Source of the DNA: Bacilli bacterium
GTDB lineage: Bacteria > Bacillota_I > Bacilli_A > RFN20 > CAG-826
Reading direction: 5' to 3'
DNA: 64,000 nt
Assembly: GCA_050952805.1 (NCBI GenBank)
Contig: JBMNLM010000001.1
Span: 285,741-349,740, forward strand
Translations under genes and position numbers: made by a program
Part shown: positions 1,273 through 62,240 of the stretch, one piece after another
Layout of the letters: every line of letters begins with the position of its first letter
How positions within the stretch are numbered: position 1 is the stretch's first letter
Notes under the pieces: generated by a model
The model's input: only the letters and a program-made list of their open reading frames with translations
Told to the model about the DNA's origin: nothing
Database searches by the model: none

Positions 1273-1281
1273 TTACAAAAG

Positions 1282-1318
1282 AAAAAAGGATGGATAAAAA
1301 ATACACCATCCTTTTTTT
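1282..1318. terminator. Bidirectional intrinsic terminator
   Basis: AAAAAAGGATGG...CCATCCTTTTTTT hairpin between convergent genes. Confidence 0.8.
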
Positions 1319-1330
1319 CTTACTTTTTAA

Positions 1331-1864
1331 CTATTTATTTTCAAAATGATCTTTATAGTTTTCAATCGATTCCGTAATTAATTTAAGAGCGTAATCACGG
1401 TCTTGGATTTGATGAACAACCGTTTGTTTTCCTTCAAGTGTTTTATAGACTTGGAAAAAGTGACGGATTTCTTGAAAGATGTGTTGCGGTAAGTCATCAA
1501 TTGAATGATACTCTGCAAAAGTGGGGTCATTTTCGCAAATTGCGATTATTTTTTCATCAGCTTCCCCTGAGTCAACCATCTTAATTGCCCCAATTGGACG
1601 ACATCTTACAATTGTAAGAGGAATAATTGGAAGCGAACATAAAATTAAAACATCGAGGGGATCATTATCTCCTGCATATGTTTTTGGAATAAATCCATAG
1701 TTTTGCGGATAGTGAGTTGAAGTGTATAAAACTCTATCTAATATTAGTCGACCGGTTTCTTTGTCAAGTTCATATTTTGCTTGGCCACCTTTTGAAATTT
1801 CAACGACGGCTATAAAACTTTCAGGCGTAACTCGGTCAGAATCGACATCATGCCAAATATTCAT
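1331..1864 (-). CDS. ppa: Family I inorganic pyrophosphatase
   Basis: KYELDK, YPQNYGFIP and D(N)DPLDV motifs. Confidence 0.95.
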   Translation of the reverse strand: MNIWHDVDSDRVTPESFIAVVEISKGGQAKYELDKETGRLILDRVLYTSTHYPQNYGFIPKTYAGDNDPLDVLILCSLPIIPLTIVRCRPIGAIKMVDSGEADEKIIAICENDPTFAEYHSIDDLPQHIFQEIRHFFQVYKTLEGKQTVVHQIQDRDYALKLITESIENYKDHFENK

Positions 1865-2036
1865 AATTTATTTCTCCTAATTCCTTTATTATCATATAGC
1901 ATATATGATTTTTTTTCCACTTTTCGAAAATTTATAACAAAAGCTATTAAAAAATATCATTTAATTTAAAACGTTCATATTTATAAATAGAACATAAATT
2001 TTATGCATTTTTAGTTAAAAAATATATAATGACTAT

Positions 2037-2813
2037 ATGAAAAAATTGTTTAATAAATTTCTTATCTTAATGTCTAGTCTTACGCTCCTTTCGGGCTGTA
2101 ATAAAACAAAAATTAGTCGCTTTTCGGTAAGTTTTGATGAAACTAATCCCCCAGAATCGTATTTAATTCCTATAGACAATGAACGATTAACAGCCTTAAT
2201 GAATGGTCAAGCTGATTTTCTTCTCTATCTTGGCTCACCAACGTGCCCAAATTGTACGAAAGTAACGCCACAATTTGAACGTTATGCCAAAGAAAACAAA
2301 ACGCTAATTTATTATTACAATTCGAAAAATTATACTTCTGATATTGGTGAGAACTTCCCTTATTTATTTAGAGGCACACCATCGTTTTTTGTAATAAATC
2401 GTGGTAGCGTTCTTGAATCATATTTAGGGGCAACTAAACTAGATACCTACGTTAAAGTTTCTAACATTATTAAAAACTACACAGAAAAAACTTCAATTGA
2501 TTTCGTCTATTCTCTTAGTTTACTAGATGAATTAATTAGTAAAGATAACACAATTATTTATGTAGACTTAAAGAACGAAAAACACGTCTTAGATTTCAAT
2601 GCTAATTTAGTAATAAACCTTAGAAATGCAAAGAAAACGCTGCATTTTGTTGATATTTCTAATGATTTTGGAATAACTGAGGAAGAGTTTTTAACGCGTT
2701 ATAATCTAAGTAAAGAAGAAATTACGGCAAAAAAATATCTTGATGGAGTCGAGGACTCATCAAGACAATTTTCGATTAATTCTATTAGTGAATTTATAAA
2801 CTTTGTTAAATAA
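2037..2813 (+). CDS. Lipoprotein with thioredoxin-like CxxC domain
   Basis: Lipobox LLSGC; 'LYLGSPTCPNC' and 'GTPSFF' thioredoxin-fold motifs. Confidence 0.7.
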   Translation: MKKLFNKFLILMSSLTLLSGCNKTKISRFSVSFDETNPPESYLIPIDNERLTALMNGQADFLLYLGSPTCPNCTKVTPQFERYAKENKTLIYYYNSKNYTSDIGENFPYLFRGTPSFFVINRGSVLESYLGATKLDTYVKVSNIIKNYTEKTSIDFVYSLSLLDELISKDNTIIYVDLKNEKHVLDFNANLVINLRNAKKTLHFVDISNDFGITEEEFLTRYNLSKEEITAKKYLDGVEDSSRQFSINSISEFINFVK

Positions 2814-2818
2814 CTTTT

Positions 2819-3646
2819 TTATTTCTTTTCAAATATAGGGGGAACGGTAACAGGAATGATATCGTTCTTTTTAAGTTCTGCAATAATTCGTTCATTAATT
2901 TCAAAAAGTAATGACCAATAATTATCGTTATGAGCATAGAATCTCACGCGAATTTCAAAACCATAATTATTAAAACCATAGACGATAACGTTAGGATCAG
3001 GACTTCTTAAAATTCGCTCATCATTTAAAACAATATCGAAAAGTATCTTTTTGATAACTTCTGGATTATGTTTATAGTCAAAATTAAGTTGAATTTGCGC
3101 TCTTCTTGTAATGTTTCTTGAATAGTTTGTTAGACCATTGTTAATAACAAACTTATTTGGGAGGAGAATATGTTGGTTATCTGGCGTATCTAGCGAGGTA
3201 TGAATAACGCCAATTTGAGTTACTGTTCCTGAGAATTCATCAACTGTAATGTAGTCACCAACAACAAAAGGTTTACTAGAAAGTAGCGTTACGCCAGCGG
3301 CAAAGTTTCCAATTAAGTCTTGGAGCGCTAGACCAATTGCAAGGACCCCAGCAGAAATGATTGAAGCAAGACTACTTAAATTAACGTTAGCGATTAATAA
3401 AACGATAATAGCTAGCGCAAATCTAAGTAAAACAGCAACAAGACTAATTACAAAAGAGCGAACACTTCTTGTTTGCTTTTTTGTGTCAATACGATTAATT
3501 CGTCTAAGAATAAATAAAATAAAGTTAATTAAGTAGTGACCAACGATAATAACAACAATAATAATGACAGTTCGCATTAATATGTCCATACCGTTAGTGT
3601 TAAAGAATTCAACTACATCTTGCCACCATTTTTCAAAACTACTCAT
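2819..3646 (-). CDS. Small-conductance mechanosensitive channel (MscS family)
   Basis: 'GLALQDLIGNFAAG...KPFVVGDYI...G.V..IG' MscS signature; N-terminal TM helices. Confidence 0.9.
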   Translation of the reverse strand: MSSFEKWWQDVVEFFNTNGMDILMRTVIIIVVIIVGHYLINFILFILRRINRIDTKKQTRSVRSFVISLVAVLLRFALAIIVLLIANVNLSSLASIISAGVLAIGLALQDLIGNFAAGVTLLSSKPFVVGDYITVDEFSGTVTQIGVIHTSLDTPDNQHILLPNKFVINNGLTNYSRNITRRAQIQLNFDYKHNPEVIKKILFDIVLNDERILRSPDPNVIVYGFNNYGFEIRVRFYAHNDNYWSLLFEINERIIAELKKNDIIPVTVPPIFEKK

Positions 3647-46598: not shown

Positions 46599-47900
46599 CT
46601 ATTCAGTTGGTGGTTCTTCGTAATTTCCGGGTTCGTTAGACATTAACCAACTATAAGCATCAGGGAATCTTCTACTCCACGAGGCTTCGTTATGGCTGCC
46701 GTTTTCATCAATTAAAGTAAAGATGTTTTCGGCAGGATAACCAGCATTAAAGAGCTCATCAGCGACGGGGTTAACGTAGGTCCAAAGGGATTCGTTTTTA
46801 CCGCTATCTAGGTAAATTCGCGACAAATCCGCTGTTAAATCCAAAGATTCAATAAATTCTTGTCTTGCCGCGGCAGAATTTATTTGGAACGAGGAAGAAA
46901 AGCAACCAAGCATTCCAAATGTGTCTTTATGTTTTAGACCTGCATAAAAACTAATTAAGCCACCCATTGAACTACCAGCGATCATCGTGTGTTCTCTTTC
47001 TGGTTTTGTGTTGTAGTGACTATCAATATAAGGTTTAAGTGTTTCTACAATAAACTTAGCGTACAACCCGCCTTCTGCAGTTGGTTTATCGGATAAGTCT
47101 GGAGTGTACTCTTCCATTCTTCTTGGGCTATTGTCGATACCGACGATGATCGCGACTTGTTTTCCTTGTTCCAGGAACCTTTCCATCGTTTCATCTACTT
47201 GCCACTCTCCTGCAAAACTAGTTACATTATCAAATAAGTTTTGACCGTCATGCATATAGATAACAGGATATGTAACACTTTTATTGTTTGGGTCGTAATT
47301 ACTTGGTGTCCATACTCTTATTGTTCTTTTTCTACCATCACTAAACTCAGGCATATCCATATTTTCAATAATGTCTAGATTACCTACGACTGTAGGTTCG
47401 TTTGGCTTATTATAATCTGCAAAGTTTTTAACAGTATCATTAACTACTGTTACTTTTGGACTATCTTCTTTAATTGTAACGACTCTATTTTCAATTTCGC
47501 TCACGCCATCAGCCTCCTTTTCTACACCTGCCCACATTGTTTCGCTTGTCATAGAAGGTGTTTGGATTGTCCATTTATATTGAATGTTATAGGAACTTCT
47601 TTCGCTTATATCAAAGTCAAGGGTTAAGCGATAGTTAAGATCATCAACTTTACTAGCTTCGTAGCTTAGATCATTTGGTCTCCAAGAGTTAAGGTTAGAA
47701 CCTATTGTTAGACGTTCATTTTCACTTAGGGTATAAGGTAATTTAACGTTTAATTCTAAAACACGGACATTTTCAGGAATTGAAGATTCCGTCGGAATAC
47801 TTGAAGAATCTTCGCCTGGTTTAGAGGAATTGTCTCTAGGTCCACATCCTACTAACATAAGTGCTCCTGTTAACATTAATAAACTAAATTTTTTCTTCAT
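46599..47900 (-). CDS. Lipoprotein alpha/beta-hydrolase (putative esterase family) with CBM20-like N-domain
   Basis: Lipobox LVGC; YMHDGQNLF, GSSMGG nucleophile elbow, HNE..W. Confidence 0.85.
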   Translation of the reverse strand: MKKKFSLLMLTGALMLVGCGPRDNSSKPGEDSSSIPTESSIPENVRVLELNVKLPYTLSENERLTIGSNLNSWRPNDLSYEASKVDDLNYRLTLDFDISERSSYNIQYKWTIQTPSMTSETMWAGVEKEADGVSEIENRVVTIKEDSPKVTVVNDTVKNFADYNKPNEPTVVGNLDIIENMDMPEFSDGRKRTIRVWTPSNYDPNNKSVTYPVIYMHDGQNLFDNVTSFAGEWQVDETMERFLEQGKQVAIIVGIDNSPRRMEEYTPDLSDKPTAEGGLYAKFIVETLKPYIDSHYNTKPEREHTMIAGSSMGGLISFYAGLKHKDTFGMLGCFSSSFQINSAAARQEFIESLDLTADLSRIYLDSGKNESLWTYVNPVADELFNAGYPAENIFTLIDENGSHNEASWSRRFPDAYSWLMSNEPGNYEEPPTE

Positions 47901-47994
47901 ATAATGCTCCTTTCATTTAATTATTTCTTATTACTTACTGCCATATTTATTTTAGCATATTAATAAGTACAAAATTAGATTATAAGGAAGAAAA

Positions 47995-48051
47995 AAAGAC
48001 GTTATCGTGTTTCGTTAAGTGTATAACGAAATAGGAGGCGATAACGTCTTT
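47995..48051. terminator. Long hairpin at island left edge
   Basis: AAAGACGTTATCG...TTTCGTTA/TAACGAAA...CGATAACGTCTTT. Confidence 0.7.
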
Positions 48052-48121
48052 ATTTATAATCAAATTTATATTAAAAAGAAACAAGAAAAGTAGAAATAAC
48101 GTTGCAAAACCTTTGTCTTTT

Positions 48122-49981
48122 TTATTTTTTCTCTATTAAATTAGAAACTATAATTCTTCCAGTTTCTTTTGATGGTTGTTCTAGTAGAGCATCATTCCAA
48201 AGTCTAATAACATTATGATATGTTGTGTATTGCAATTTTTTAATTATTAAGGAAACTCTATAAATTTCAGTACTTGTGACATGTGTTACTCTTCTTTTTG
48301 AAAAATGCTTCTTATCGTAAAGAATAAGGGAACTATTATCACCTTGTTGAGTTACTAATTCCTTGTAATTTCGATAGATATCGGGTGCTCTATCTTTTAA
48401 TAAATTAGGGAACTTATTATAAACATATTTATCGACCATAGAGTAAGCAAAATAAGGCGTTATTGAACGATCTATGGGATTTATAAATAGATGGTTATAA
48501 TAGTCAATATCAACTATACAGCCATGAATATTTCCCGTTCCTCCAATGCGCCTAATTTCTTTAGATATACGTTCTTGAAACTCTAGATAATCTGAAAGAT
48601 AAACTTTAATAGAAATCGAATAATTTAGCATATTATCGTAATAATAATTTAGAGATTTATGTGTTAATGTTCGGCGATTACCACCATCTAAAAGCAGTAA
48701 TTTACCTTTATCATTTTCGATAATAAACATATATACATCATTGCGTTTTAACATATATAACTTCGAATAATCAGTATTGAAAGAAATATATTTCCTCATG
48801 CCATGATAAAATTTTATATATTCGTTTCTTGTTATTTCATGTATGCCGTCATCATAGTTACGAAATGGAACAAAATCACTATTTAACCAAAATTTTTTTA
48901 AGTTAAAGTTTTTGCCCTTGTATCCACTTTGATTATTAGCTAAAACTCTTGTTACAGAATCATCATAAGCGTAATTTTGGTGATTATGACCACTAACATA
49001 AACGATTCGTTCTTTATGTTTATAGTCTTTTCCCGCCCAGTCTTCAAGAGGCATATGAGTTAAAACTATTAAATTTTTATCATAAAGAGCACTCGTCACC
49101 TTTTCATATAAATTAAGAATTTTTTCACTTTCTTGCTTTTCTTGTTCTCTACTTATTACATCTTTATACATGCCAACAGTTGCATTAAACGTTTCGTTAT
49201 TGCCGGCAAAACCAATTCCGCCAAAAATAATTGTTTCTGCTACTCTCATCCTTTGTCTTAATTGTTCGGGTGGTATTCTCTCTAGTTCAGTCTCGGAAAT
49301 CTCCTTCCAACCATTATTTTCATAGTAAAAAAGGTTGTTTTGAACTAGATGTAATCTGCCTTGTCCATATTCTTCTAATATTTTACGATAGGTCGAAACT
49401 ATATATTCAAATGACTGATTAGCAAACGGCCATAATTCATGGTTTCCTAAAGTTATAAAAAAATGCCCAAAATGGTTCATTTTACTTAGTTTCTTTATAA
49501 ATTGCTTGTAGATTTCAAAATCACTACATATATCACCACCGATGAGATTTGCTCGTGTTGTAGCTTGTCCTGCAATCGTACTTGCTATTAAATCAAGAAT
49601 CCGATTGGTATCTTCAAACGTTTTACATTTGTACTCATTAAGTTTGTATAAAAGATGAATATCAGTTATATATGATATCGCATCAGAAAAATCATCTTCG
49701 CTGATTGACTTTATTAAACGACTAATAGCGCTAGTTTCTCCTTTTATTCCTGATTGGTCATTAGAAGGCGTAAATAAAGGTGCTTGCCTTCTACTACCTC
49801 TATTCTTTGGAAGGCTAAGCGAATCGTTATATTTGAATTTATCTTTTTTTACCCCTTTCTTATTTTTACTAGAAGGTTTACTTGCATTTTGACTAATAAC
49901 AAAAATCATCACAATGAAAATGAGTAAAACTATTAGAACTACAATAGGTACAATAATCTCCACATTCATATAATAACTCAC
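48122..49981 (-). CDS. Membrane-anchored calcineurin-like metallophosphoesterase with NERD-gene-derived N-terminus
   Basis: TDIH, GGD, LGNHE, THMP, SGHNH metal motifs; N-terminal TM; first 89 aa align with the ORF starting at 59454. Confidence 0.8.
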   Translation of the reverse strand: MSYYMNVEIIVPIVVLIVLLIFIVMIFVISQNASKPSSKNKKGVKKDKFKYNDSLSLPKNRGSRRQAPLFTPSNDQSGIKGETSAISRLIKSISEDDFSDAISYITDIHLLYKLNEYKCKTFEDTNRILDLIASTIAGQATTRANLIGGDICSDFEIYKQFIKKLSKMNHFGHFFITLGNHELWPFANQSFEYIVSTYRKILEEYGQGRLHLVQNNLFYYENNGWKEISETELERIPPEQLRQRMRVAETIIFGGIGFAGNNETFNATVGMYKDVISREQEKQESEKILNLYEKVTSALYDKNLIVLTHMPLEDWAGKDYKHKERIVYVSGHNHQNYAYDDSVTRVLANNQSGYKGKNFNLKKFWLNSDFVPFRNYDDGIHEITRNEYIKFYHGMRKYISFNTDYSKLYMLKRNDVYMFIIENDKGKLLLLDGGNRRTLTHKSLNYYYDNMLNYSISIKVYLSDYLEFQERISKEIRRIGGTGNIHGCIVDIDYYNHLFINPIDRSITPYFAYSMVDKYVYNKFPNLLKDRAPDIYRNYKELVTQQGDNSSLILYDKKHFSKRRVTHVTSTEIYRVSLIIKKLQYTTYHNVIRLWNDALLEQPSKETGRIIVSNLIEKK

Positions 49982-50375
49982 CTTGCAAATGTTGACAAAA
50001 TGTATCGCATAGTGAAAAAAACTCTAAAAAATATATTTTAAAGATCTATATCAACGCATCACGCACCTAGCCAATTTCATTTGCCCATTGGCTTCGAACA
50101 CATATTATTTAATACCAATTGGTCAGATTTTCAATATAATAAAGCTCGAGTGCAATGGGCGTTTAAATACCAAATTTAATAATGTTTTTATATATATGTA
50201 AACCTAAAAATTTCGTGAGAAAAGACGCAAATTGATGATATTTAACATTTCTCTTAAGTTATGTAAATAAATTTTTACGTGTCCTAGATAAAATTTTAGA
50301 AAATTTTCAATTTGTAATCGTTCCTACACATAAAACAATACAATGAAAAAATTTTAAATAAGATGCAGTAATACT

Positions 50376-52334
50376 TTAATTTACTAATTTACTTTTTAAA
50401 AAGTCACGAAGTTTTTCGTCTTCGCAATAAACAAATGTACCTCTTATTCCTCTTGTAAGTAAAACATAATACGTGTTCTTAATCCAGGTCTCTGCATCTT
50501 GGTCACTTGCAGTTCTTATGCCTGCATAGTCTGTCTTAGCGTGAGCTTCTTTATTGAATACAATCCGACCATTTTCATATGTCATATCTTTTCCAATTAT
50601 CACTCCGCAATAATCTAAATCGATTCCCTGACAAGTGTGAATACAACCTATTTCGTCAATTGATAAAGGATCATCGGCCCAGGAGTAAGCACTTAATCCA
50701 CTTCCGTATCTTAAATTCCATTTTTTTGCAAAATTGTGCTTTTCAATAATCACGTCATTAACTCCATCACGAACACTTGGATCAGACACCCATTCATAGC
50801 AATAACCAGCAACAACCCTGCAATTTCCATTGTAATCGTGAATTGCAAAGGGAAATTTACCGTCATTTACAGCCTGTCTTCTTCGTGACTCTGTATCTAG
50901 TTCTTTTATTTTATTAAACATTTCATTTGGATCATCGAATATCTCAAATTCATAAGAATTATCTTTATTAAATTTGACATCTTCATCAATCAATCCTAAA
51001 AACGACTTAATAAATTGTATGTACTCTGCGCCTCCTTGGACACGATATTGCCCAGTTAACTCAAGTTCACTACCCATTACAACCATTGAACGGCATTCTT
51101 CGGCAATTTCTTTAATTAGTTCAACTGTCGCATAATCATCTTTTGTAACAGCTTGATTATCATCAATAAAGAAAACACTAACTTGAGCAACATTAATTAA
51201 TTCTCTTAGCATATTCGTGCCTTTTTTTAAGCCAACGCCACCTTTCATCTTAAAAATCCGATGGGCCTCGTCAATTAATAGACAAGGTACCTCGTTTTTA
51301 GGACGATTAGCAAATGAAGTTGGGTATTTAAATAAAGATTGTAAACTGGATTTTGAAAACTTCTTATCTTTTGTAAGACCGTTATACAAAACTTTCTTAG
51401 GTGCAGCGTTTACAGTCACATACATTGTAGTTATCCTGTCTTCTTTTCTCTTAGGACTATTTAATAACCCAAGAGCATTAATCGCAATTACTGATTTACC
51501 AGTTCCTGCGCCACCTTTAATAATGATTGTTTTCTTTTGTCCGTAGTAATAAGCTTCTCTTACAGAATCAACAATCGTTTAAAGTGCATTAGATTGACTC
51601 GAGTCAAGAGAATACATTTGATTACCACTTAAGGCATCTCGCATTAATTTTGCAAAGTTATCACTAGGAATTGTTCTTGCTCTATTAATTTCATACAAAA
51701 TTTCATGACAACTTTTACTAACATATTGTTCAACAAACTCTCTTAATCTTCTACCTTCATTTTCAAGAAAAGAAGGTGATTCGCTAATAAATGGGAAAAG
51801 TGATATATCATCCATTAATGGTTTATAACCAATATCGAGATTATGACAAAATGAACATGATTTAATGCCCATTTTTTCGACTTGGACATATTCATTAAAC
51901 GATTGTAATTGCCCACTATAATTATAAGCTTGATATGAGGGGTGAAAATGATCTTCAAAATATCCTTTTGCGACCATTGTATGTAACTTATTAAGTGAAC
52001 CAGTTCTGCTAACTTCTGACCACTGTTTTAATTCAACAATAACCATGTTTTTTTGATTGTTTTTGTCGACTCCATAAATTAAAAAGTCTAGTCTTTCTAG
52101 ACTATGTTTAAGTCGATACTCGACTGCTACATCTACATCATCATCAATTAAGCTGTTTTGTAGTGCTTTAGCAATTTCTGGTAATGAGTTTTGCCAAGAT
52201 GTTTCCCAATTTGGCATAACATGTGTATAGCCAGCATTAAGCATCCCAAATTTAACTTTATTTGCGATGTCTTTAGATAATAAACAATCATGTATAAATG
52301 TTTTTAGAGTTTCTTGATAAATAATTTGTTGCAT
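50376..52334 (-). pseudogene. DUF2075 (Schlafen group 3-like) nuclease-helicase with one in-frame TAA at 51579-51581
   Basis: 1959 bp, one frame. N-terminal 'EY...RLDF...IVELKQW' nuclease motif; Walker A GGAGTGKS just after the stop; LIDEAHR, QYRVQGG, IGCIHTCQGIDLDY, VLLTRG. Confidence 0.85.
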
Positions 52335-52400
52335 GTTTTTTCCTTAAACTGTATATAGAACATTCATTTAGAATAAAAGTAAGTTGATTTCATTTTTTTA

Positions 52401-53327
52401 TTATTCTCCGCTTGCCCAATTGATAAAATCATCAGAACTTAAATTTTCAGCTGTCGTTAAATTAGAATCATACTCTATGTTAAAGATACCTTCATCATTT
52501 TTTTCAGAAATTCTGGGGATATTTAATGCATCAAAAACTTTTATGTTGTCAATAATATAATTCTCATTGTATGCTGTTAATTTCAATTCATCTATACTGA
52601 TGCTTTTTTTAATTTTTTCGATATATATTTGAATAAGAAAGTTATTACTAAAAGCAGTTTTACATCTCTCAATTAAATCATATAATGTTAACCCTCTATC
52701 ATCAGCAAGCAATAAAATTGAAACAATTTTTATATCATATCTTAATGTATTTAGTTGCTCATTTTTAAAATGATGTATTCTTTCTTCTTTCGTTGTGCTC
52801 TTAACATCTATTTTTCGTTTACTATCAATAGAAAAATCAAATTTCATTTTACTTTTAGATTGATAATAGTTAGAAAGGTCGAAATCGTAATATTCCTTAA
52901 AATAATAAATTGTATAAAGTTCTGCATACAATCCTTGTACTTGAATGCTACCGCTTTTCGCATCATAACTAAATAAATCTTTCAAATACATAAAAAATTG
53001 TAAAAACGAGTATTTTTCCTTGTTTAAGTTATAAACCTCAGTTAAGTTTATGAAAATATCCAAATATTCTGTCTTTTTTAATATGATAATATTCAATCTT
53101 TCAATACTTGTATTATTATTTTCAACAACTTCACAGTAAGCGTTTAAGTAAAGTGTAAGAGATTTGGTGGACTCAATAATCGCGCGCGGATTGTCCACAG
53201 CCTTGTCACCATAAACGACAAAACCTTCAGAATTTCTTCCCCAGTATTCGTCATTTATCTTTCGAAAAACCATACCACTTTCTGGTATGTCAAGAACATC
53301 TAAAACTTCTTTTATTCTATTATTCAT
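52401..53327 (-). CDS. PD-(D/E)XK motif protein (DUF4420/MzaD-like)
   Basis: 'QGLYAEL', 'KFDF...IDVKSTT', 'H.F..EQL'; directly downstream of the Z1 gene with 8-nt overlap. Confidence 0.75.
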   Translation of the reverse strand: MNNRIKEVLDVLDIPESGMVFRKINDEYWGRNSEGFVVYGDKAVDNPRAIIESTKSLTLYLNAYCEVVENNNTSIERLNIIILKKTEYLDIFINLTEVYNLNKEKYSFLQFFMYLKDLFSYDAKSGSIQVQGLYAELYTIYYFKEYYDFDLSNYYQSKSKMKFDFSIDSKRKIDVKSTTKEERIHHFKNEQLNTLRYDIKIVSILLLADDRGLTLYDLIERCKTAFSNNFLIQIYIEKIKKSISIDELKLTAYNENYIIDNIKVFDALNIPRISEKNDEGIFNIEYDSNLTTAENLSSDDFINWASGE

Positions 53328-55530
53328 CTCTTCTACTCCGCGTTACTATATTTAGTGCAAACTCTTCTGGAATATACATGCATATTGCTGGGGAATAATA
53401 ATCGTTATCTGCTAAATTTCGCGCTTTTACATAGTGAATTTGAATTTGAATTTTATTTGGCCTTTCATCACATGTACTTCTATCTCCGTAATAGTCAAAT
53501 TCATTATTTTCATTTTGTTTTATATCGCGGCCTCTAAATAGTTGTTGTATTTTACCATCATCATTTAATTTTCTAACTTCATAATCGTCAATTCGAAGCC
53601 ACATTAAATCAATGGTGTCAACGATATTATTAACCAAAAATATATTAAATATCTTTTCTAAAACTTCATTATTTAGTGTGTCTCTTGGATCTAAATATAA
53701 ATTACTTAAAACGTTGTCCATAAAATCATCAATTGGATAATCCTTAACTAAATAGTGCTTGTTAATACCTTTATAATCCCTAATTTCGCCCTCTGTCTCA
53801 TTCCGTAAGTTTTCAAGTAAATTAAAGTTATTTATTGCATTATCACCTTTAACGTAATATTGTTGACTTTTCCATTCTGTATATGAAATATCTTCAGTCC
53901 TAGCTACACTAGGTCTAGTAAGTTTTAACTTATGAATAACGTCATATTGTAATTCAAAATATCTTGGTAACTCCTTGAAGGGTTTCCCGAGTTTTATATT
54001 TCTTTCTATACTAGCCCACATTTCTTCATCACTGTCATTAATGGCTGCAAAATCTTTTTTTATAGCACGGGTAGCCCAAACACGACAAATATCAATATAA
54101 TCACTCTTATATCCAAACCATCGAGCTCTTTGTTCTGTTGTATCAACATTAGAATAACCTTTTGCCCTTCTAATAATATAAGTTATTGCTAAACCCTTTA
54201 TTGTTAACCCGCGTTCCAAAATATTACCACCCAAATATATTCTCGTATTAAAGTTTTCAGCATCAGAACGAGAGTCGGCGGAATCAGAATTAAAAATTAT
54301 AACATCTGATGATTTCAAGATACAATTTAGGATTTCTTTTTCATAATACGAAAATTCACGAAGTTTAACATTTTCGTCTTTATAGCCATTATATGCACTT
54401 AATAATATCGGCTTTAGGTCTTTAACATAAGCCATTTCATCAGTGCCGCCTAGCGCGTACAACTTCCAAATCCTTAGAACATTATCAGCCTTTTCTTTTA
54501 CCTTATTATGATCGATTTTTTTCTGACTAGGATGTATTAACATCGAGTGAACACCATTATCACCTCTTGCCTTTCTTATTGCATTACTCACATAGAATCT
54601 AGCAAGTGCATCGTAAAACGATTCAGGAATTTCATTAATATCATCCAACAAGGAAACTTCCTCTTCTGGAATTTCCTTAACATAAGTATCTTCATCATCA
54701 CCATGAAACGTAGATAAACCACAATATCCTTCGCCAGGATAAATAAGTGCTCCAAAATCAGGCGATAGTACATCTGATGTTTTGATTAATATATTAGCTT
54801 GTGGAGTTGCAGTTATTGACAAGAAGCAGTGTCTGTTTATTTTACTTTTTATATCTGTTGCAACTTTGTAGGTTTTAGCAATAGCATTTTTCTTAGAATA
54901 AACTTTTGAATTTAGTGTTGCTTGATCGCCTTCATCATCAATAATAATCGTGGTTTCATTTGCAAGTACTGGATCATCAAAAAGATCAGAAACTCTACTC
55001 ATATGCTTTCCAGTATGTACTTGTGGCGATTTCAAAGTAACGATAATTACTTTAGTACCGTTACGAATCCAGTTTTTCACTTGTTCTGGTGTTATTTGGT
55101 TATAGTTCTTCTTTGAATGAAGTACAACTAAATTATCAACATTCGTATTAAATGCAGTCTTTATCCTATTAACATTTTGTGTTAATAATTCATTAGTATT
55201 GCCACCAATTACAACTGCAATATTATAGCCGTTGTCAAATGCAAGAGCTATTAGTGCAATAAAATTAGATGTCTTTCCACTTTGAACTTTTCCGATTAAT
55301 ATTCCGGTTTTCTTAAATTCTTGATTGTAGTTAGGATTGGGACAATAATTTAAAACGTTAATTGCGTTTGCAAAAATATTATCAACAATTTCTCTGTTCA
55401 TTGAAGGGTCACTAATACACATATTAGTTTTAACTTCATTTACAAAAAAACCATCTGTCTTAATATTTCCAAACGTATCATCATTATGGCGTTCTATTAC
55501 ATTAACGTAGATGTTATCTCTTTCTGTCAC
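53320..55530 (-). CDS. Z1-domain protein (SF2 helicase-like + Z1)
   Basis: GKVQSGKT, IIDDEGDQA, ITATPQAN, SMLIH, GGNILERGLTI.GL..TY, QRARWFGY. Confidence 0.88.
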   Translation of the reverse strand: MTERDNIYVNVIERHNDDTFGNIKTDGFFVNEVKTNMCISDPSMNREIVDNIFANAINVLNYCPNPNYNQEFKKTGILIGKVQSGKTSNFIALIALAFDNGYNIAVVIGGNTNELLTQNVNRIKTAFNTNVDNLVVLHSKKNYNQITPEQVKNWIRNGTKVIIVTLKSPQVHTGKHMSRVSDLFDDPVLANETTIIIDDEGDQATLNSKVYSKKNAIAKTYKVATDIKSKINRHCFLSITATPQANILIKTSDVLSPDFGALIYPGEGYCGLSTFHGDDEDTYVKEIPEEEVSLLDDINEIPESFYDALARFYVSNAIRKARGDNGVHSMLIHPSQKKIDHNKVKEKADNVLRIWKLYALGGTDEMAYVKDLKPILLSAYNGYKDENVKLREFSYYEKEILNCILKSSDVIIFNSDSADSRSDAENFNTRIYLGGNILERGLTIKGLAITYIIRRAKGYSNVDTTEQRARWFGYKSDYIDICRVWATRAIKKDFAAINDSDEEMWASIERNIKLGKPFKELPRYFELQYDVIHKLKLTRPSVARTEDISYTEWKSQQYYVKGDNAINNFNLLENLRNETEGEIRDYKGINKHYLVKDYPIDDFMDNVLSNLYLDPRDTLNNEVLEKIFNIFLVNNIVDTIDLMWLRIDDYEVRKLNDDGKIQQLFRGRDIKQNENNEFDYYGDRSTCDERPNKIQIQIHYVKARNLADNDYYSPAICMYIPEEFALNIVTRSRRDE

Positions 55531-57073
55531 TTGGAAACTCCTCTAATATTTGTCCCATTTTCATACGTATAGCAGAAGAGCCGGCATTAGCTGGTGTTTC
55601 TAACTCTGCTAAAATCAATGCAATACAAAATTTAATTAAAATTATCAAAAAATCTTTTTTCTGTATATAAGGTTCGAAAAAAGGAAATAAGGAATTTATG
55701 GTTAACCGATATTTTCCTTCTTCTTCGCTCAATACTGAACACTTAAACCAATTATTCATTTCGCTTGAATCATCAAGAACAACATTAAAACAGTATGATT
55801 TACCATTATGTATAAAATTAATATCGATTGGTTTATTATCTTCAATATCAACGCCAACGCCAACACTTTCTGAAAGATCAGGTTCCTCATACTCAGGAAA
55901 TACATCTTTTTCTTCTTGTACAAGGCTTTCAGTGCTCTCCGTATTTTCATCGGAAAGTTTTATATTTACATCTGTAAAACTTTCATTGGGCTTAAACGAT
56001 TTACTTAGACTATTTGCAATATCTGATGATGATACTTTTTCTCTTACTCGAATTTCATCAGCTTTCTTTCTAAGTTCCGCAGATAATTCCTTTAGTTTTT
56101 CAATAAATTTTGATTCTAAATCATCATTACTCCAATCAAATGCATCTTTTGCCTGTGTAACTGGCCAGTTATCCATATGTAATTCACCAAATATTCTTTG
56201 ATAACAATAGGAGTTTGATGCGCCAAAAATTTCATAAGGTCGGTAATTTTTATTTGGCCCACCAACAATTACACGACCTCTTCTTACCAGTGTAAGACCA
56301 GCATTTGTAGGGCTTCCTGGAATTCTAATACCAATAAAGCCCTTTACTCTTAATTCTGTACCTTCGTGCGGGATTATAAAATCAACTTCTTTTTTCCATT
56401 CTTTATTATCTTCATCAACGTAAGGTTGAACTTCTTCAAACATTAATTGAATTCCATTGTAGAAGATTTTTATATCTCCTGATCTTAGGTCTACTCGATA
56501 AATACTTGATAGTAACTCTTTTACTTTTCTTTCAATTCTCTTACCTTTGATCTTACGATTTAAGTTTTCAATTGTAATGATTGTGTAGTGCTCTTTTCGA
56601 TTAGCATGTTCCTCTGTTACATCAATTTCTTCATTTTTGTACTTAACTAACATCTCAACATCAACAACAGCTTTATATTTAACGTTACTATTCAACTCCG
56701 TAGACTCAACAGTCCATTTATTCCCAAACCAGCAAGCAGCAGTTTTAAGACCCATTCCAAATTCATTTCGTCCAGATGTATCTAATGGAGGTCTATCTAA
56801 AATAATTGCACGTTTAAAATCAGAATAATTCATTCCATATGCATTATCAATAATAACAATTCGATCACCATTTACTGAATCTTCATAGTAGTTTATTTGA
56901 ATTTCAAGCCCATTCCAATATTTAGTTTCCTCGAGCGCTTCTTTATGATCGTAATAGCTTTGAGTTGAATTATCAACAAACTCTGCTAATGCTGTCCATG
57001 GCTCATAACTAACTCTTTTATACGTACCATAAACACCAGTATCTGGTCTTATATTTAATTTTCTTACGCTCAT
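55514..57073 (-). CDS. MORC/MutL-like GHKL ATPase (HATPase_c_3)
   Basis: ALAEFVDNS, IIDNAYGM, FGMGLKTA; ATGA overlap with the methylase stop. Confidence 0.88.
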   Translation of the reverse strand: MSVRKLNIRPDTGVYGTYKRVSYEPWTALAEFVDNSTQSYYDHKEALEETKYWNGLEIQINYYEDSVNGDRIVIIDNAYGMNYSDFKRAIILDRPPLDTSGRNEFGMGLKTAACWFGNKWTVESTELNSNVKYKAVVDVEMLVKYKNEEIDVTEEHANRKEHYTIITIENLNRKIKGKRIERKVKELLSSIYRVDLRSGDIKIFYNGIQLMFEEVQPYVDEDNKEWKKEVDFIIPHEGTELRVKGFIGIRIPGSPTNAGLTLVRRGRVIVGGPNKNYRPYEIFGASNSYCYQRIFGELHMDNWPVTQAKDAFDWSNDDLESKFIEKLKELSAELRKKADEIRVREKVSSSDIANSLSKSFKPNESFTDVNIKLSDENTESTESLVQEEKDVFPEYEEPDLSESVGVGVDIEDNKPIDINFIHNGKSYCFNVVLDDSSEMNNWFKCSVLSEEEGKYRLTINSLFPFFEPYIQKKDFLIILIKFCIALILAELETPANAGSSAIRMKMGQILEEFPSDRKR

Positions 57074-58410
57074 AGATTCCTCCAATCTTCAACGGCAAAA
57101 CTAATAAGTTTTTCAAAAACTTTCTCGACAATTTTTACATTCACAGCGTTTCCAAGGAATTTGTACGTCGCTTGATCGCTTGGCAATTTATAATTTTTAT
57201 CAAAATTTTGTAAATTAGCAGCTTCCCTTGGAGATATTTTTCTTAAAATTTTATTATAATTATCATAAATAATCGGTGTGTTGTTTATTGCAACTAATGT
57301 TGGAAAATAATTATTTGGTTTTACTCTAATACCTGATTGTCTAAATTGAATAATTGTATCTTTATAATCGAAAATATCCTCCGAATTACAATTCCATTCA
57401 AATTTCTTATACACTTTTGGGTTATTTAACATATCATGTTTTACAATCCACTTATCTATTTGTTTTTTATGTTTTAGATAAAAATCGCGATTTTTAGTGA
57501 TAAACCTAATCTTCCATTCAGGCATTTTTCCAATTTGTGATTTAGTTTTTACTTGTTTTCCTTCTTCATTAATCAAAATATGATGAAATTTTTTGCTCAT
57601 AAATTCAGAATCAGACATGTTATAACCAAAAAAATCTAACCAAATTGGAACCCCAACAGTTTCAAAGTTGGTAATTTTTTTAAATTCAAGCCACGCATCT
57701 AAAATTTCAATTTCCTTCTTGGATAATAAGCAGTGGCTTGGAAATTCTTTTTCTAGAATTTTATTGGCATCTCCTAGAGCACAACCTTCTCTATTTTTAG
57801 GCAAATCATTAAAATCTCCTAAATCATCCATATGTATATAACTATTTGTAAGTTTTAGAGGATTGCTTATATCTTTTCTAATCCCTAGAATATAAACTCT
57901 TTCACGAAATTGAGGAATATTGAATTGAGTAGGCGACAAAATCAATGGTTCTTCTGTTATATAAAAATTAAGTTTTTTTAATTCAGATGTAATTATGTCC
58001 CAATTCTCAGTTTTGTCAGCAAGATTCTTAACGTTTTCTAAAATAACCAGTTTACATTCAGGGTGAGCTTTTAATATTTCAATGACTCGATAAAATAAAT
58101 TCCCATCACTTTTATCGTTAAATCCTTGCTGTTTGCCCGCTTTACTAAAAGGTTGACAAGGAAATCCACCACAAAGAACATCAAAATTTGGTAATTTTTC
58201 CCATTCCTTATTAATATCTCCAAATATGGGGGTGTTCGGAAAATTATCTTTATAAATCTCAATAACCTGTTTATTAATATCTGATGCACCAACACATACA
58301 CCACCAAATTTAACTAAGGCCTGATGAAACCCTCCCAGGCCCGCAAATAGGTCTACAAACGTAAATTTCCTTTCATTATTATTCATAAACATTGCAATTC
58401 TTTCATACAA
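57070..58410 (-). CDS. DNA (cytosine-5)-methyltransferase
   Basis: DLFAGLGG (motif I), GFPCQPFS (IV), ENV (VI), PQ.RERVY (VIII), GNAV (X). Confidence 0.96.
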   Translation of the reverse strand: MYERIAMFMNNNERKFTFVDLFAGLGGFHQALVKFGGVCVGASDINKQVIEIYKDNFPNTPIFGDINKEWEKLPNFDVLCGGFPCQPFSKAGKQQGFNDKSDGNLFYRVIEILKAHPECKLVILENVKNLADKTENWDIITSELKKLNFYITEEPLILSPTQFNIPQFRERVYILGIRKDISNPLKLTNSYIHMDDLGDFNDLPKNREGCALGDANKILEKEFPSHCLLSKKEIEILDAWLEFKKITNFETVGVPIWLDFFGYNMSDSEFMSKKFHHILINEEGKQVKTKSQIGKMPEWKIRFITKNRDFYLKHKKQIDKWIVKHDMLNNPKVYKKFEWNCNSEDIFDYKDTIIQFRQSGIRVKPNNYFPTLVAINNTPIIYDNYNKILRKISPREAANLQNFDKNYKLPSDQATYKFLGNAVNVKIVEKVFEKLISFAVEDWRNL

Positions 58411-58683
58411 ATAAAATTCAAAATTTTATATACCGATCTCAGTCAAAGATATATCAAAATAAACTTATTTTGAAACCTAATTAATTTTACCATATATTTG
58501 ATCTATACACCATTTATGCAAAGTATTTACTTTTTGGACTTTTAAATTCAAAATTTAATAGCAAAAACATACTTGATATTTATTACTTAAAAATGAGTTT
58601 TAATAACATGTTGTTAAAAATAAAAAAAGACTGTATTTTTAGACCTATTAAGGAAATGTAAGATAAATTTAAAAATATACAAA

Positions 58684-59454
58684 CTAATCTTTAAATTTCT
58701 TTTGCATATATTCCTTATGCTCTCTTAGTTCTTCTTCACTAGCGACATACGGACTAAGTTTTGTAAAAAGAAAATGAAGTGGACCTTCAAAATCTTCATC
58801 ATTTTCTAAGGTAGAGTAATATTCTTCAAATTCACCTATAGTAAAGACAAAATCTGAATCAATATTAGACCCTTCCTCTAAAGAGGGAAAAATAACAACA
58901 TTATCGACAAAAAACTTCTTATCTAGAAAGTCTTCAAGTATTTCGCAATGTTTTTCGTTTTGGGAAACTGGATTTCTTTGCTTCCGATTTTCCATATAGT
59001 AATCGCGGTACTCTTGTAACCAAAATTCACTTTCATCATCACCGCTTATTCTTCCAATCCAATTTTTAATTTCAACACAAAATATACCTTTATGCGTAAT
59101 TAAAATACAATCTAATTCTGTTTTACGTCCGTTATAAAGTGGCAAAAGGACACCTTCTAATATATATTCATCGTTTTCCAATAATTCCTTTAGGCGTGAA
59201 ACGACATATCTCTCTCCTTCTATACCTGCTTGATCATTAGGAGGCGTAAAAAAGGGAGCATGTCTTCTACTAACACGATGTTTTGGTAGACTAGCCGAAT
59301 CATCATATTTTATATTGTCTTTTTGAGATTCATTTTTATCTTTTTTTGAAGGAATACTTGTTTTTTTACTAATAAGATAAGCAATAATAAAAACGAGTAT
59401 GACTAATAAAACTACAATAGGAGCAATAATCCACATATAAATATAATAACTCAC
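58684..59454 (-). CDS. Membrane-anchored NERD-domain nuclease
   Basis: GTG start matching its paralog; TM helix; 'GIEGE...TELDCILITHKGIFCVEIKNW...NPVSQN..H' NERD motif. Confidence 0.85.
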   Translation of the reverse strand: MSYYIYMWIIAPIVVLLVILVFIIAYLISKKTSIPSKKDKNESQKDNIKYDDSASLPKHRVSRRHAPFFTPPNDQAGIEGERYVVSRLKELLENDEYILEGVLLPLYNGRKTELDCILITHKGIFCVEIKNWIGRISGDDESEFWLQEYRDYYMENRKQRNPVSQNEKHCEILEDFLDKKFFVDNVVIFPSLEEGSNIDSDFVFTIGEFEEYYSTLENDEDFEGPLHFLFTKLSPYVASEEELREHKEYMQKKFKD

Positions 59455-59540
59455 GTAATTAATGAATACAAAAAAGGTGTTAAAGAGCCGAAAGAAAAAT
59501 CCCCCTAAACGCAAGATTTAGAGGGACATTTCACGCATTT

Positions 59541-59617
59541 TGGGGCGACTGATGGGACTTGAACCCACGAGTGTCTGGTTCACAGCCAGATGTGTTAACC
59601 GCTTCACCACAGCCGCC
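59541..59617 (-). tRNA. tRNA-His(GTG)
   Basis: G-1, GCGGCTG/CAGTCGC acceptor, TCTGG-CT GTG AA-CCAGA, CCA. Confidence 0.97.
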
Positions 59618-59627
59618 AGATAGAGAT

Positions 59628-59656
59628 ATTTTAAAGTTTATATAATAATTTGTCAA
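59628..59656 (-). promoter_or_regulatory. Sigma-A promoter of tRNA-His
   Basis: TTGACA-17 nt-TAAAAT on the minus strand. Confidence 0.8.
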
Positions 59657-59760
59657 AATGTTTATTTTTATTGTTTAAATAGAGAGAAATGAAGACATCG
59701 AAAAATGTTCAATGTGATGAAAATTGTTTTTCATATATGACTTTATAGTTATATTTTTAT

Positions 59761-62094
59761 CTAAGAATAAACAATCTCTACGGTTCCTATGCTTTCGGTA
59801 AAAAGTTTTTCCCCTGCTTCGTTAGCGAAAAAGAATTCCATTGTATAACTAAAACCATTTGTTTCTTCTTTAAATGTTAACGACCACCAAAATAGTATTT
59901 CATTATCTGGCTCGTTATATGCTTGGCCATCTAATTGAAATTGAAAATCAAGACCAGCAACAGGTGATACAAATTCGTATTGTTCCGTTTCGGGATTATA
60001 GAAATCAGCCATATCGTCAGAATTATCTAAATATTCGCGAACATTTAGGGAATATTCAATTGGGTCATAAGAATAAAAAACAGAAAAATAGAACATATAT
60101 TTAGTTTCATCATTATATTCATATGTAACATCGTCAAAAAGGACATTAACCTTGCCTTCTTCTAGTGTATTTGCAACAAAACTCTTTGTTTCATTAATTG
60201 AAGTCCAATCTGGATGATTAGATAAATCAATGAATTGTGTTGAATTTGCATAAATTGTCCACCCTTCAGGGAAAGTTAAAGGAGGTTCTACGTAAGCGCT
60301 AAATATAGCCCCATCTAAATCTAAAGTATCCGTTTCAAGATTATGAGTAAGAATAATATCACCACTAGACCCGCCATGATATTTAAAAGTTAAAATGTTG
60401 TTTTCATCATCAATATCTATAATTTCAAAATAGCGACCCCATACGTAAGTAGAATCTTCGTTTTCGTCATTGTGAAGTTCGACATAAATTTCCACTTTAT
60501 TAGGTTCGGCATTTAATTTGAGGAAATAATTATTTTCACCCACATACTTTTTCCAATCAATCTCATAATTTTCCGGGGTTCTTAAAACATCTTCCCCAGG
60601 TTCAATATTGATATCATCAAAATAGCGAATTTCTTTATAAACGTTATTGCCTAAAAGATCTTCTTTATAAGAAAGTAGGATTGAATAATATCCCCATGGT
60701 AGACTTGATAAATCAATAGTATCAACAGCATTTGCATTAATATCAAATTTTTCATTAGTTCTATAATTGTAAAAAGTTAGTAAGTATTCACTTACTTCAC
60801 AATTTGAATTAATATTTACGCTAAATTCCTTTTCTTCTTCATTAAAACTACCCGAGAATGTAAATTTGAGTGTTTCGAAAACAAAATATGTTTCATCTGA
60901 GATAATTGTAAAATCACCCCAAACGATAGGAACTACTTTGATTTTTAAAGTAATTTCAGTTTCAGTTACATCATCATAGCTTATAATGTAGTCCCTGAAA
61001 TAATCATAATAATATAAATCAAACACTTGATTTGAATAATAGAATTCTTCACTACAGATATACAAATCTTGAGAATTATAAACTTCGTAAATTTCAACAC
61101 GCGTTGAAATACCTTCTGCGCCTATTACATCATAATCGACTTGAATATTCATTCTTGTTTGTGTAACAGAATTAATTTTTGTTTTGATAGTGCCTTCTTC
61201 AATTGTTTCTTCTCTTGTTATTACTACATCAGTTTTTATATATTCTGAATCTGAGTAATTAATATCATCACCAAGACTTTTGATATAAAGGTCATAAAGT
61301 CCTAGTTCAAGACTGTTTATTAGGTCACTAATATTACTAGGACCGGTAAGTTCCTCTTCTATAAATAAAGATGCATCACTTTGACTAACGATTTTGATTT
61401 TATAACCTGAAGAATTTTCTATAAGTGTAAAGGAAAGGTAGTTTTCATCATCTAAACTAACATTACTAGGCGCTAGTAATTGCTCCGTTTCCCCTGTACC
61501 AGGGTAAGGCGTAGCTTCACATCCTCCATCTTCACTTCTAAATTGGATGATCATTTTTTGAAATGAAAGTTCAACGTTTTTTGTTAAAAGAGATAATTTA
61601 AAAAACGAAGGGTGGTAAGAAGAAAAAATAATATCATGTGAAGGTGTACTACTAACGATTTTTTCTTCTGTAATTTGAGGGACACCTTCTTCCCAATAGT
61701 AATCATATTTAAGCGTTACTTGTTCGTCGTTAGCAATTGTTAAGTTAATTAATGATATTTTTTGGATTGAACCAATAATAAGATTCGTATTTGCAATATA
61801 GGCATCAAGCGTATCGCTACTTTGCATATAATAACGATTGTTTTCAAACCTTAATTGCTGAAACATAAAGTCACGCGTACTGCCTTCTTGTGTGTTTATC
61901 GTTTTTTGGCCACTTGTATAAGTTACTGAGTTAGTTAAACTATTGTCTTTATCAATAATAATTTTATGCATTTCATTTTCTCCTCTTATTAAAGAGAAAG
62001 AGTTAATATTACTAACTAAGGCTATAGTTGCAGCAAAAAGAGCGCTACTAATGAGCGCAAATGAAAATAATTTATTAATTCTTTTATTTTTCAT
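59761..62094 (-). CDS. Large secreted acidic protein of unknown function
   Basis: Signal peptide MKNKRINKLFSFALISS...; 'LLAPSNVSL' beta-sandwich-like segment. Confidence 0.65.
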   Translation of the reverse strand: MKNKRINKLFSFALISSALFAATIALVSNINSFSLIRGENEMHKIIIDKDNSLTNSVTYTSGQKTINTQEGSTRDFMFQQLRFENNRYYMQSSDTLDAYIANTNLIIGSIQKISLINLTIANDEQVTLKYDYYWEEGVPQITEEKIVSSTPSHDIIFSSYHPSFFKLSLLTKNVELSFQKMIIQFRSEDGGCEATPYPGTGETEQLLAPSNVSLDDENYLSFTLIENSSGYKIKIVSQSDASLFIEEELTGPSNISDLINSLELGLYDLYIKSLGDDINYSDSEYIKTDVVITREETIEEGTIKTKINSVTQTRMNIQVDYDVIGAEGISTRVEIYEVYNSQDLYICSEEFYYSNQVFDLYYYDYFRDYIISYDDVTETEITLKIKVVPIVWGDFTIISDETYFVFETLKFTFSGSFNEEEKEFSVNINSNCEVSEYLLTFYNYRTNEKFDINANAVDTIDLSSLPWGYYSILLSYKEDLLGNNVYKEIRYFDDINIEPGEDVLRTPENYEIDWKKYVGENNYFLKLNAEPNKVEIYVELHNDENEDSTYVWGRYFEIIDIDDENNILTFKYHGGSSGDIILTHNLETDTLDLDGAIFSAYVEPPLTFPEGWTIYANSTQFIDLSNHPDWTSINETKSFVANTLEEGKVNVLFDDVTYEYNDETKYMFYFSVFYSYDPIEYSLNVREYLDNSDDMADFYNPETEQYEFVSPVAGLDFQFQLDGQAYNEPDNEILFWWSLTFKEETNGFSYTMEFFFANEAGEKLFTESIGTVEIVYS

Positions 62095-62240
62095 GGCAGA
62101 ATCCTCTCGCACTAATTTAGTTTAAAATTATATTATCATATAACAATAAAAAGTTCCCCTTTTCATAGGAACATAGATATTAGTAGGTTATGCTAAGTAC
62201 TTTTACACTCATGTAGTAACTTGACTGTAAAATTATTTAT

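Follow-up and report, generated by a model that had tools for sequence, protein, structure and literature searches.

Two genes on the minus strand of the window, a stretch of 64,000 nucleotides from a Bacilli bacterium (contig JBMNLM010000001.1 of assembly GCA_050952805.1), raise the question of how two different enzymes came to begin with the same protein sequence. One gene codes for a metallophosphoesterase (48122-49981; 619 aa from GTG) and the other for a membrane-anchored protein with a NERD domain (58684-59454). A first-pass annotation of the sequence had suggested that a duplicated 5' end of the NERD gene was fused to a phosphoesterase, or that one anchor module was reused to co-localise two enzymes, and that the two copies might allow the DNA between them to be gained or lost by recombination. 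Our results favour the fusion: the phosphoesterase is probably a chimera, in which the front end usual for its family was replaced by the 5' end of the NERD gene.

The module shared by the two genes

Both open reading frames (ORFs) exist as claimed and are readable from GTG AGT TAT TAT. The alignment of their N-termini, for which 50 identities had been counted by hand, was confirmed by BLASTP with compositional matrix adjustment: 52/98 identities over the first ~90 residues, with 73% positives, one 1-aa gap and an E value of 2e-30. When the membrane helix was removed, 30/54 identities were still found (E 2e-21), so that the similarity is not an artefact of composition.

At the DNA level the copies are 70.4% identical over codons 1-89 (69% at first, 83% at second and 60% at third codon positions), and the identity falls to ~40%, the background level, past codon 82. 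The distribution over codon positions is the one to be expected if the two stretches are homologous as coding sequence. The longest perfect run common to both is 14 nt long. In a repeat search of the window, the top direct repeat was formed by 49913-50000 and 59386-59473, which are 76% identical and spaced by 9473 bp.

In the phosphoesterase, the module (copy A; 49700..49981, minus strand), delimited by BLASTP, DNA identity and AlphaFold, consists of a membrane helix (residues ~5-30), a basic linker (residues 31-49), the motif KYNDSLSLPKNRGSRRQAPLFTPSNDQSGIKGE (residues 50-82) and, in residues 83-~92, an orphan remnant of the first NERD helix. The remainder of the gene (48122..49699, minus strand) codes for a calcineurin-like catalytic domain and a C-terminal domain of ~270 aa, as indicated by Pfam, the homologues and Foldseek. 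Copy B (59164..59454, minus strand) is the native 5' end of the NERD gene and codes for the membrane helix, the linker, the motif and the first NERD helix; the NERD domain and C-terminal helices follow (58684..59163, minus strand; Pfam and AlphaFold). Between the two copies, 25 of the 33 motif residues are identical. The alignment ends inside the first NERD helix, as had been noted: the Pfam NERD domain starts at residue 77 of the NERD protein, and the DIH motif of the phosphoesterase lies ~17 residues past the end of the alignment. A NERD model run on phosphoesterase residues 1-118 gave no match at E values up to 10; ~15 residues of the first helix remain.

AlphaFold models were obtained for both proteins, each with a mean predicted local distance difference test (pLDDT) score of 82. 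In the NERD protein, a membrane helix (residues 4-24) is followed by a disordered segment (residues 26-60) and by a helix (residues 66-85) which packs on a confident core, the beta-sheet part of which is modelled at pLDDT above 90. In the phosphoesterase, the membrane helix (residues 3-28) is followed by residues 29-93 at pLDDT below 50, with a low-confidence orphan helix (residues 73-86) not packed on the core, which becomes confident from residue 97. The models predict the module to be a membrane anchor with a flexible tether of ~65 residues.

Origin of the phosphoesterase N-terminus

The NERD gene product matches PF08378 with 88 bits (gathering cut-off 22.1; E 7.9e-25) over residues 77-190, and no variation was seen at its core residues E107, D109 and K124 among 11 homologues. 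It is a regular member of the membrane-anchored NERD proteins of Bacilli and Mollicutes, with a helix, a basic linker, a first helix with 'G..GE' and a PD-(D/E)XK-like core. The same layout, in which a membrane helix and a basic linker are followed by 'F(F/A)(T/A)PxN(D/E)(Q/R)xGxxGE' running into the NERD fold, was found in protein P0122, at loci L020 and L022, in the metagenome-assembled genomes labelled Bacillales bacterium UBA4855 and Bacilli bacterium RGIG3356, and in Metamycoplasma hyosynoviae. The NERD domain itself resembles the N-termini of PglW, MkoA and MAD6. Of the parts of these membrane-anchored NERD proteins, the phosphoesterase has retained no more than the anchor, the tether and a short piece of the first helix; it lacks the nuclease core and is not itself a NERD protein.

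The phosphoesterase matches Pfam Metallophos (PF00149) with 39 bits (gathering cut-off 21.5) over residues 105-335, and 534 homologues were detected. Its core and C-terminal domain (query ~95-616) are 40-50% identical over ~520 residues to those of more than 100 proteins. These belong to an uncharacterised calcineurin-like family of ~1000 aa from gut and rumen Bacilli and Clostridia, one member of which, P0005, is labelled 'Candidatus Enterosoma sp.'. The window protein shares with this family the core, the C-terminal domain and all metal motifs: in the numbering from the ATG, conservation is complete for G145-D146, G175-N176-H177-E178, H305 and G327-H328-x-H330 and nearly complete for D103 and H105. 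Foldseek retrieved PptH (6unc) and Mre11 (4tug, 5dny, 3auz) with E values of 2e-5 to 2e-4 and probability 1.0; the TM-scores were low (below 0.3 on the query), and the likeness is at the level of the generic fold only. A sequence search of the PDB with the profile of the family found no relative.

What the family has at its N-terminus is different. Among the top 120 homologues, the similarity to the window protein starts around residues 80-100, and the hidden Markov model (HMM) of the family aligns weakly from residue 83 and confidently from about 93 (EDDFSDAISYITDIHLL). In most of these homologues the N-terminal region is soluble and 430-500 aa long; in about a dozen it is soluble and short. 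Where the ~1000-aa family has the long region, of ~450 aa, the window phosphoesterase has the NERD-derived anchor instead. The long-form region, which contains 'FxxFLxGDLSxADL...CDGxENI', is absent from the protein, and no relic of it was found in the window or in the whole genome. No membrane-anchored form was found in 84 further phosphoesterase loci from metagenomes and assemblies, and only one other protein of the top 120, P0101, has a membrane helix, in a sequence unrelated to the module. The family was not found in 60 relatives, and a scan of genome contigs with the single phosphoesterase as query gave no match. The linker that precedes the catalytic domain in the family ('LGLPxK...KxExxT..L..EDDDYS') was considered as a possible relative of the module and rejected: a linker HMM ranks the real sequences among shuffled ones.

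With P0101 (702 aa, on a contig of 2331 bp), the family has one more membrane-anchored member, independent of the first; this protein has a C-terminal zinc ribbon. The same zinc ribbon is carried by several long-form phosphoesterases (PF05265/CapR-like matches).

The module is thus native to the NERD lineage and foreign to the phosphoesterase family, the homologues of which do not routinely carry it. A module reusable in a wider sense was not borne out, since no other C-terminal domain was found joined to the module when it was searched alone. In a profile search of 1.84 billion representative proteins, this phosphoesterase was the only match apart from one to the membrane helix alone; among 400 genomes of the same family, scanned in all six frames, only this one contained the module in full, and it did so twice. 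Our literature search found nothing specific to this architecture. In addition, the phosphoesterase copy contains a segment, 'KY(N/D)DSxSLPK', which, among the NERD sequences examined, occurs in the window's own allele group only, so that the copy nests inside the NERD clade of the window. The module being native to NERD proteins, the copy nesting in that clade and the reach of the shared part into the Pfam NERD domain together support a transfer from NERD to phosphoesterase.

The similarity of the DNA to the NERD gene ends at about codon 82 and the homology to the family begins at about codon 93; sliding DNA identity and the family HMM therefore place the junction within codons 83-94 (49700..49735, minus strand). 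Over residues 1-82, the synonymous divergence of the copies (dS) is 0.68 and the ratio of nonsynonymous to synonymous divergence (dN/dS) is 0.37; in the motif, residues 50-82, dN/dS is 0.18 (Nei-Gojobori). With a dS of about 0.7 the duplication is old, and these ratios suggest that the tether motif is under purifying selection in both proteins.

The fusion would have been a non-homologous, in-frame event, by which the first ~85-92 codons of a NERD gene replaced the soluble N-terminal region of ~450 aa. It would most likely have been a deletion that joined a NERD paralogue to a long-form phosphoesterase gene next to it on the same strand. Such neighbours do occur: at locus L050 (Bacillales bacterium UBA2450), a gap of 4 nt separates a NERD gene from the long-form phosphoesterase gene that comes next on the same strand; at L170, a NERD gene, another gene and a short-form phosphoesterase gene lie in this order; at L173, a membrane-anchored NERD gene lies 1.5 kb downstream of a long-form phosphoesterase gene. 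In a layout like that of L050, a single in-frame deletion, starting at about codon 85 of the NERD paralogue and ending in the linker that precedes the catalytic domain of the phosphoesterase, would produce the fusion.

The order of genes in L050:86-8536 is a tyrosine-recombinase-like gene, a 356-aa gene, a soluble NERD gene with a C-terminal zinc ribbon, the phosphoesterase (1207 aa) and a UvrD-like helicase. The NERD and phosphoesterase genes of this locus may form an operon on a mobile element.

The duplicated fragment may also have brought its own expression signals, a promoter or a ribosome binding site of the NERD gene. The gene calls of public assemblies begin both proteins at a downstream ATG, giving 615 aa for the phosphoesterase (P0001) and 250 aa for the NERD protein, and ATG 49969 and ATG 59436, respectively, are the likely true starts. 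The best-kept DNA of the repeat, which includes its sole perfect run of 14 nt, lies just before these ATG codons, at 49970-49998 and 59443-59471. The common 14-mer, GTGAGTTATTATAT, overlaps a promoter-like TTGTCA-17-TATTAT and a Shine-Dalgarno-like word, GGTGA, and may be a ribosome binding site, a -10 element or another regulatory sequence rather than coding sequence. No significant homology was found further upstream of the two GTG codons. A relic of the tRNA-His 3' end near 50090, suggestive in a MAFFT alignment, was rejected as it was at chance level.

Strain variation and alternative explanations

Between the NERD gene and the phosphoesterase gene, in this order of transcription, lie a restriction-type cassette (52343..58683, minus strand), recognized by domains and strain comparison, and a helicase gene (50376..52334, minus strand). 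The cassette comprises genes for a Dcm methyltransferase (57070-58410), a GHKL/HATPase_c_3 protein (55514-57085), a Z1/ResIII (helicase) protein (53320-55530) and a protein of 308 aa (52401-53327), all on the minus strand, the first three assigned by domain search and the last one an ORF. The helicase belongs to the DUF2075/Schlafen-group-3 type (SLFN-g3_helicase, E 8.5e-76; Nhi-like). In this genome a single in-frame TAA (51579-51581, codon 252) splits its 652-codon gene into two ORFs, 51579-52334 and 50376-51425; the gene is intact in the strain contigs L013 and L043.

The same 615-aa phosphoesterase, identical in sequence, was found on 21 contigs. Two of the strain sequences, L006 and L009, are 99.99% identical to the window from the NERD gene to the phosphoesterase gene. 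The sole structural variant found was L013, which lacks the restriction cassette (window ~52343-58684): the 3' end of the NERD gene (92% identity) is followed by an unrelated spacer of 280 nt (L013:441-723), the intact 652-aa helicase and the phosphoesterase (99% identity on the helicase-phosphoesterase side). The breakpoints are located exactly at the NERD stop codon and at the start and ribosome-binding region of the helicase, not within the repeats. The island bracketed by the two copies, as described in the first-pass annotation, is consequently not one unit, as L013 loses the cassette only and keeps the NERD, helicase and phosphoesterase genes. The copies lie 9.5 kb apart because, in this strain, the cassette sits between the NERD and helicase genes; the spacing is a by-product of that insertion.

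These observations bear on the proposal that the copies are functional direct repeats, at which RecA could excise or capture the intervening ~9.5 kb without an integrase. It is true that the copies are directly oriented, 9473 bp apart, that the ORFs of the stretch include no integrase and that the intervening gene content does differ among strains. Efficient recombination by RecA requires roughly 25 or more identical bases (minimal processing segments), and the copies, which are 70% identical and share no perfect run longer than 14 bases, are therefore poor substrates. A dS of about 0.7 means that they have not been homogenised recently. Neither a deletion at the repeat junction nor a hybrid module was found on the 21 contigs with the phosphoesterase, the helicase lies upstream of the phosphoesterase on all of the 21 that have upstream sequence, and the breakpoints of L013, with their unrelated spacer, fall outside the repeats. 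Moreover, the predicted product would destroy the NERD gene. We regard this route as highly improbable. It is also hardly conceivable that the copies resemble each other through composition or convergence, each having a hydrophobic helix and, after it, a lysine-rich linker: such segments do produce spurious matches, and P0123 and many genome matches cover positions 1-60 only, but the E value of 2e-21 persists without the helix, the motif residues are largely identical, and a DNA identity of 70% with an excess in second codon positions is not what this explanation predicts.

If the duplication is accepted, the transfer might have taken place in the opposite direction or from a third source, with the NERD gene acquiring the module from a phosphoesterase or from a free-standing anchor cassette. 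The BLAST extensions of some members of the phosphoesterase family do reach back to window residues 50-57, through a linker of similar length, 'LGLPxK...K.E..T...L'; the resemblance of this linker to the module was at chance level when compared with 600 shuffles. The motif is carried by NERD homologues in distant taxa and not by phosphoesterase homologues, and no third type of protein with the module was found, all of which makes such a transfer very unlikely. It could further be argued that the chimeric phosphoesterase is a decaying by-product of rearrangement, which lost its sensor domain and has no function of its own: the large N-terminal region of the family is entirely gone, the helicase gene beside it has become a pseudogene in this strain and the orphan NERD helix is not packed on the core. 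The ORF is nevertheless intact, the same 615 aa being encoded on 21 contigs from several samples; no metal-binding column has been lost, dN/dS of the module is below 1, and the family has natural short forms as well as the independent membrane-anchored P0101. We consider this possibility unlikely. The fusion of a NERD 5' end to the phosphoesterase thus remains the preferred reading.

Some points weigh against this reading. The start codons of both proteins are uncertain. The junction is placeable only within codons 83-94, where residues 83-98 resemble both parents weakly, and the dN/dS values span only 81 codons and are not assignable to one copy. The topology of the proteins is derived from hydrophobicity and the positive-inside rule alone, and the deletion mechanism from layouts in other genomes. 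Finally, only 3 of the 84 phosphoesterase loci have a NERD gene nearby, so that the two families do not pair regularly and would be occasional neighbours in islands rather than an obligate pair.

The tRNA-His hotspot and the possible role of the anchor

The gene for tRNA-His (59541-59616, minus strand) lies directly upstream of the NERD gene and is followed by a terminator hairpin (59499-59527, minus strand). On its 3' side, the ORF list of the stretch contains 8 ORFs, all on the minus strand. Synteny with G001, a genome of the same genus, ends at the tRNA-His 3' end. As an empty site G001 was not informative: its tRNA-His is identical and is followed by unrelated genes, none of which was found nearby in this genome. 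The region 3' of tRNA-His is a hotspot of defence genes, and a defence role of the whole stretch is likely by association.

Contig L016 combines both situations. Its positions 1-3045 contain a NUDIX gene and a tRNA-His gene which are G001-like (97.4% identical to L038:14989-15653 of G001; 69% to the window), and this part is joined directly to the NERD-Dcm segment, which is 97.4% identical to window 57160-59618; the switch occurs exactly at the tRNA-His 3' end. Either the segment was transferred horizontally into this tRNA hotspot, or L016 is a chimera that arose during assembly at the identical tRNA.

As in tRNA-linked integrative islands, there is a tRNA gene at one boundary and variable content from its 3' end. 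Unlike those islands, the window has no integrase domain among the 10 ORFs scanned (46599-62112), no direct repeat of the tRNA 3' end at a far boundary, as judged by the repeat search and upstream comparisons, and no GC anomaly in the stretch.

The cassette resembles the MZA system (MzaABCDE) and the Dcm-linked GHKL-ATPase/Z1 systems in having Dcm, an MzaB-like HATPase_c_3 protein and an MzaC-like Z1 protein. The likeness is at the domain level only, since the equivalog cut-offs of MzaB and MzaC were missed (22 versus 850 bits and 128 versus 1500 bits, respectively). The helicase matches the Nhi-type nuclease-helicases weakly (E 6e-5), and PDC-S41 weakly as well. These genes are context and lie outside the duplicated module. 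Phosphoesterases of the family elsewhere likewise sit among restriction-modification and other defence genes, their neighbours being methyltransferases, restriction enzymes, DUF4143 ATPases and DUF2075 helicases.

At the edges of the region, an ORF of 783 aa without a Pfam match (59761-62112) is located between the NUDIX gene and tRNA-His; in G001 and L016, which lack it there, the NUDIX gene is directly followed by tRNA-His. Downstream of the phosphoesterase, an esterase gene (46599-47900) codes for 433 aa in the window and is called with 766 aa in some strains (L008:4366-6666 and L012:3003-5303), the extra ~1.1 kb having no match in the window.

The event that produced the phosphoesterase is ordinary domain shuffling, and a good example of it. 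As in the modular shuffling known from defence islands, where effectors and sensors are swapped, an N-terminal module has moved between defence-type genes a few kb apart, in a tRNA-linked hotspot. What differs from the usual case is that parent and recipient stand side by side, so that one can read directly which gene was the donor, where the junction lies (codons 83-94) and how old the event is.

According to the positive-inside rule, a lysine-rich segment after a membrane helix places the part that follows in the cytoplasm, and for this reason the catalytic parts of both proteins are predicted to be cytoplasmic. The phosphoesterase core would hang in the cytoplasm from a single N-out/C-in helix, as the NERD protein does, and the common anchor may putatively co-localise the two enzymes. 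Since the motif is kept by selection in both proteins, the tether probably does more than spacing. A more specific role is doubtful at present: the disordered motif (SLPK.R.SRR.AP.FTP.NDQ.GI.GE) could be a docking or regulatory peptide, by which both enzymes would be assembled, activated or released at the membrane by a common partner or signal. If true, the fusion would have connected a second effector to the circuit that controls the first one, creating a membrane defence module with two effectors.

The actual polymorphism among these strains is the exchange of a restriction cassette between the NERD and helicase genes, which corrects the attractive idea of mobility through the repeats. It is rare for the donor, the recipient and the junction of domain shuffling among defence genes to be seen together at a single locus, as they are here. 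This locus also indicates that an uncharacterised phosphoesterase family, the members of which are usually ~1000 aa long, tolerates the swap of its large N-terminal region for a membrane tether.

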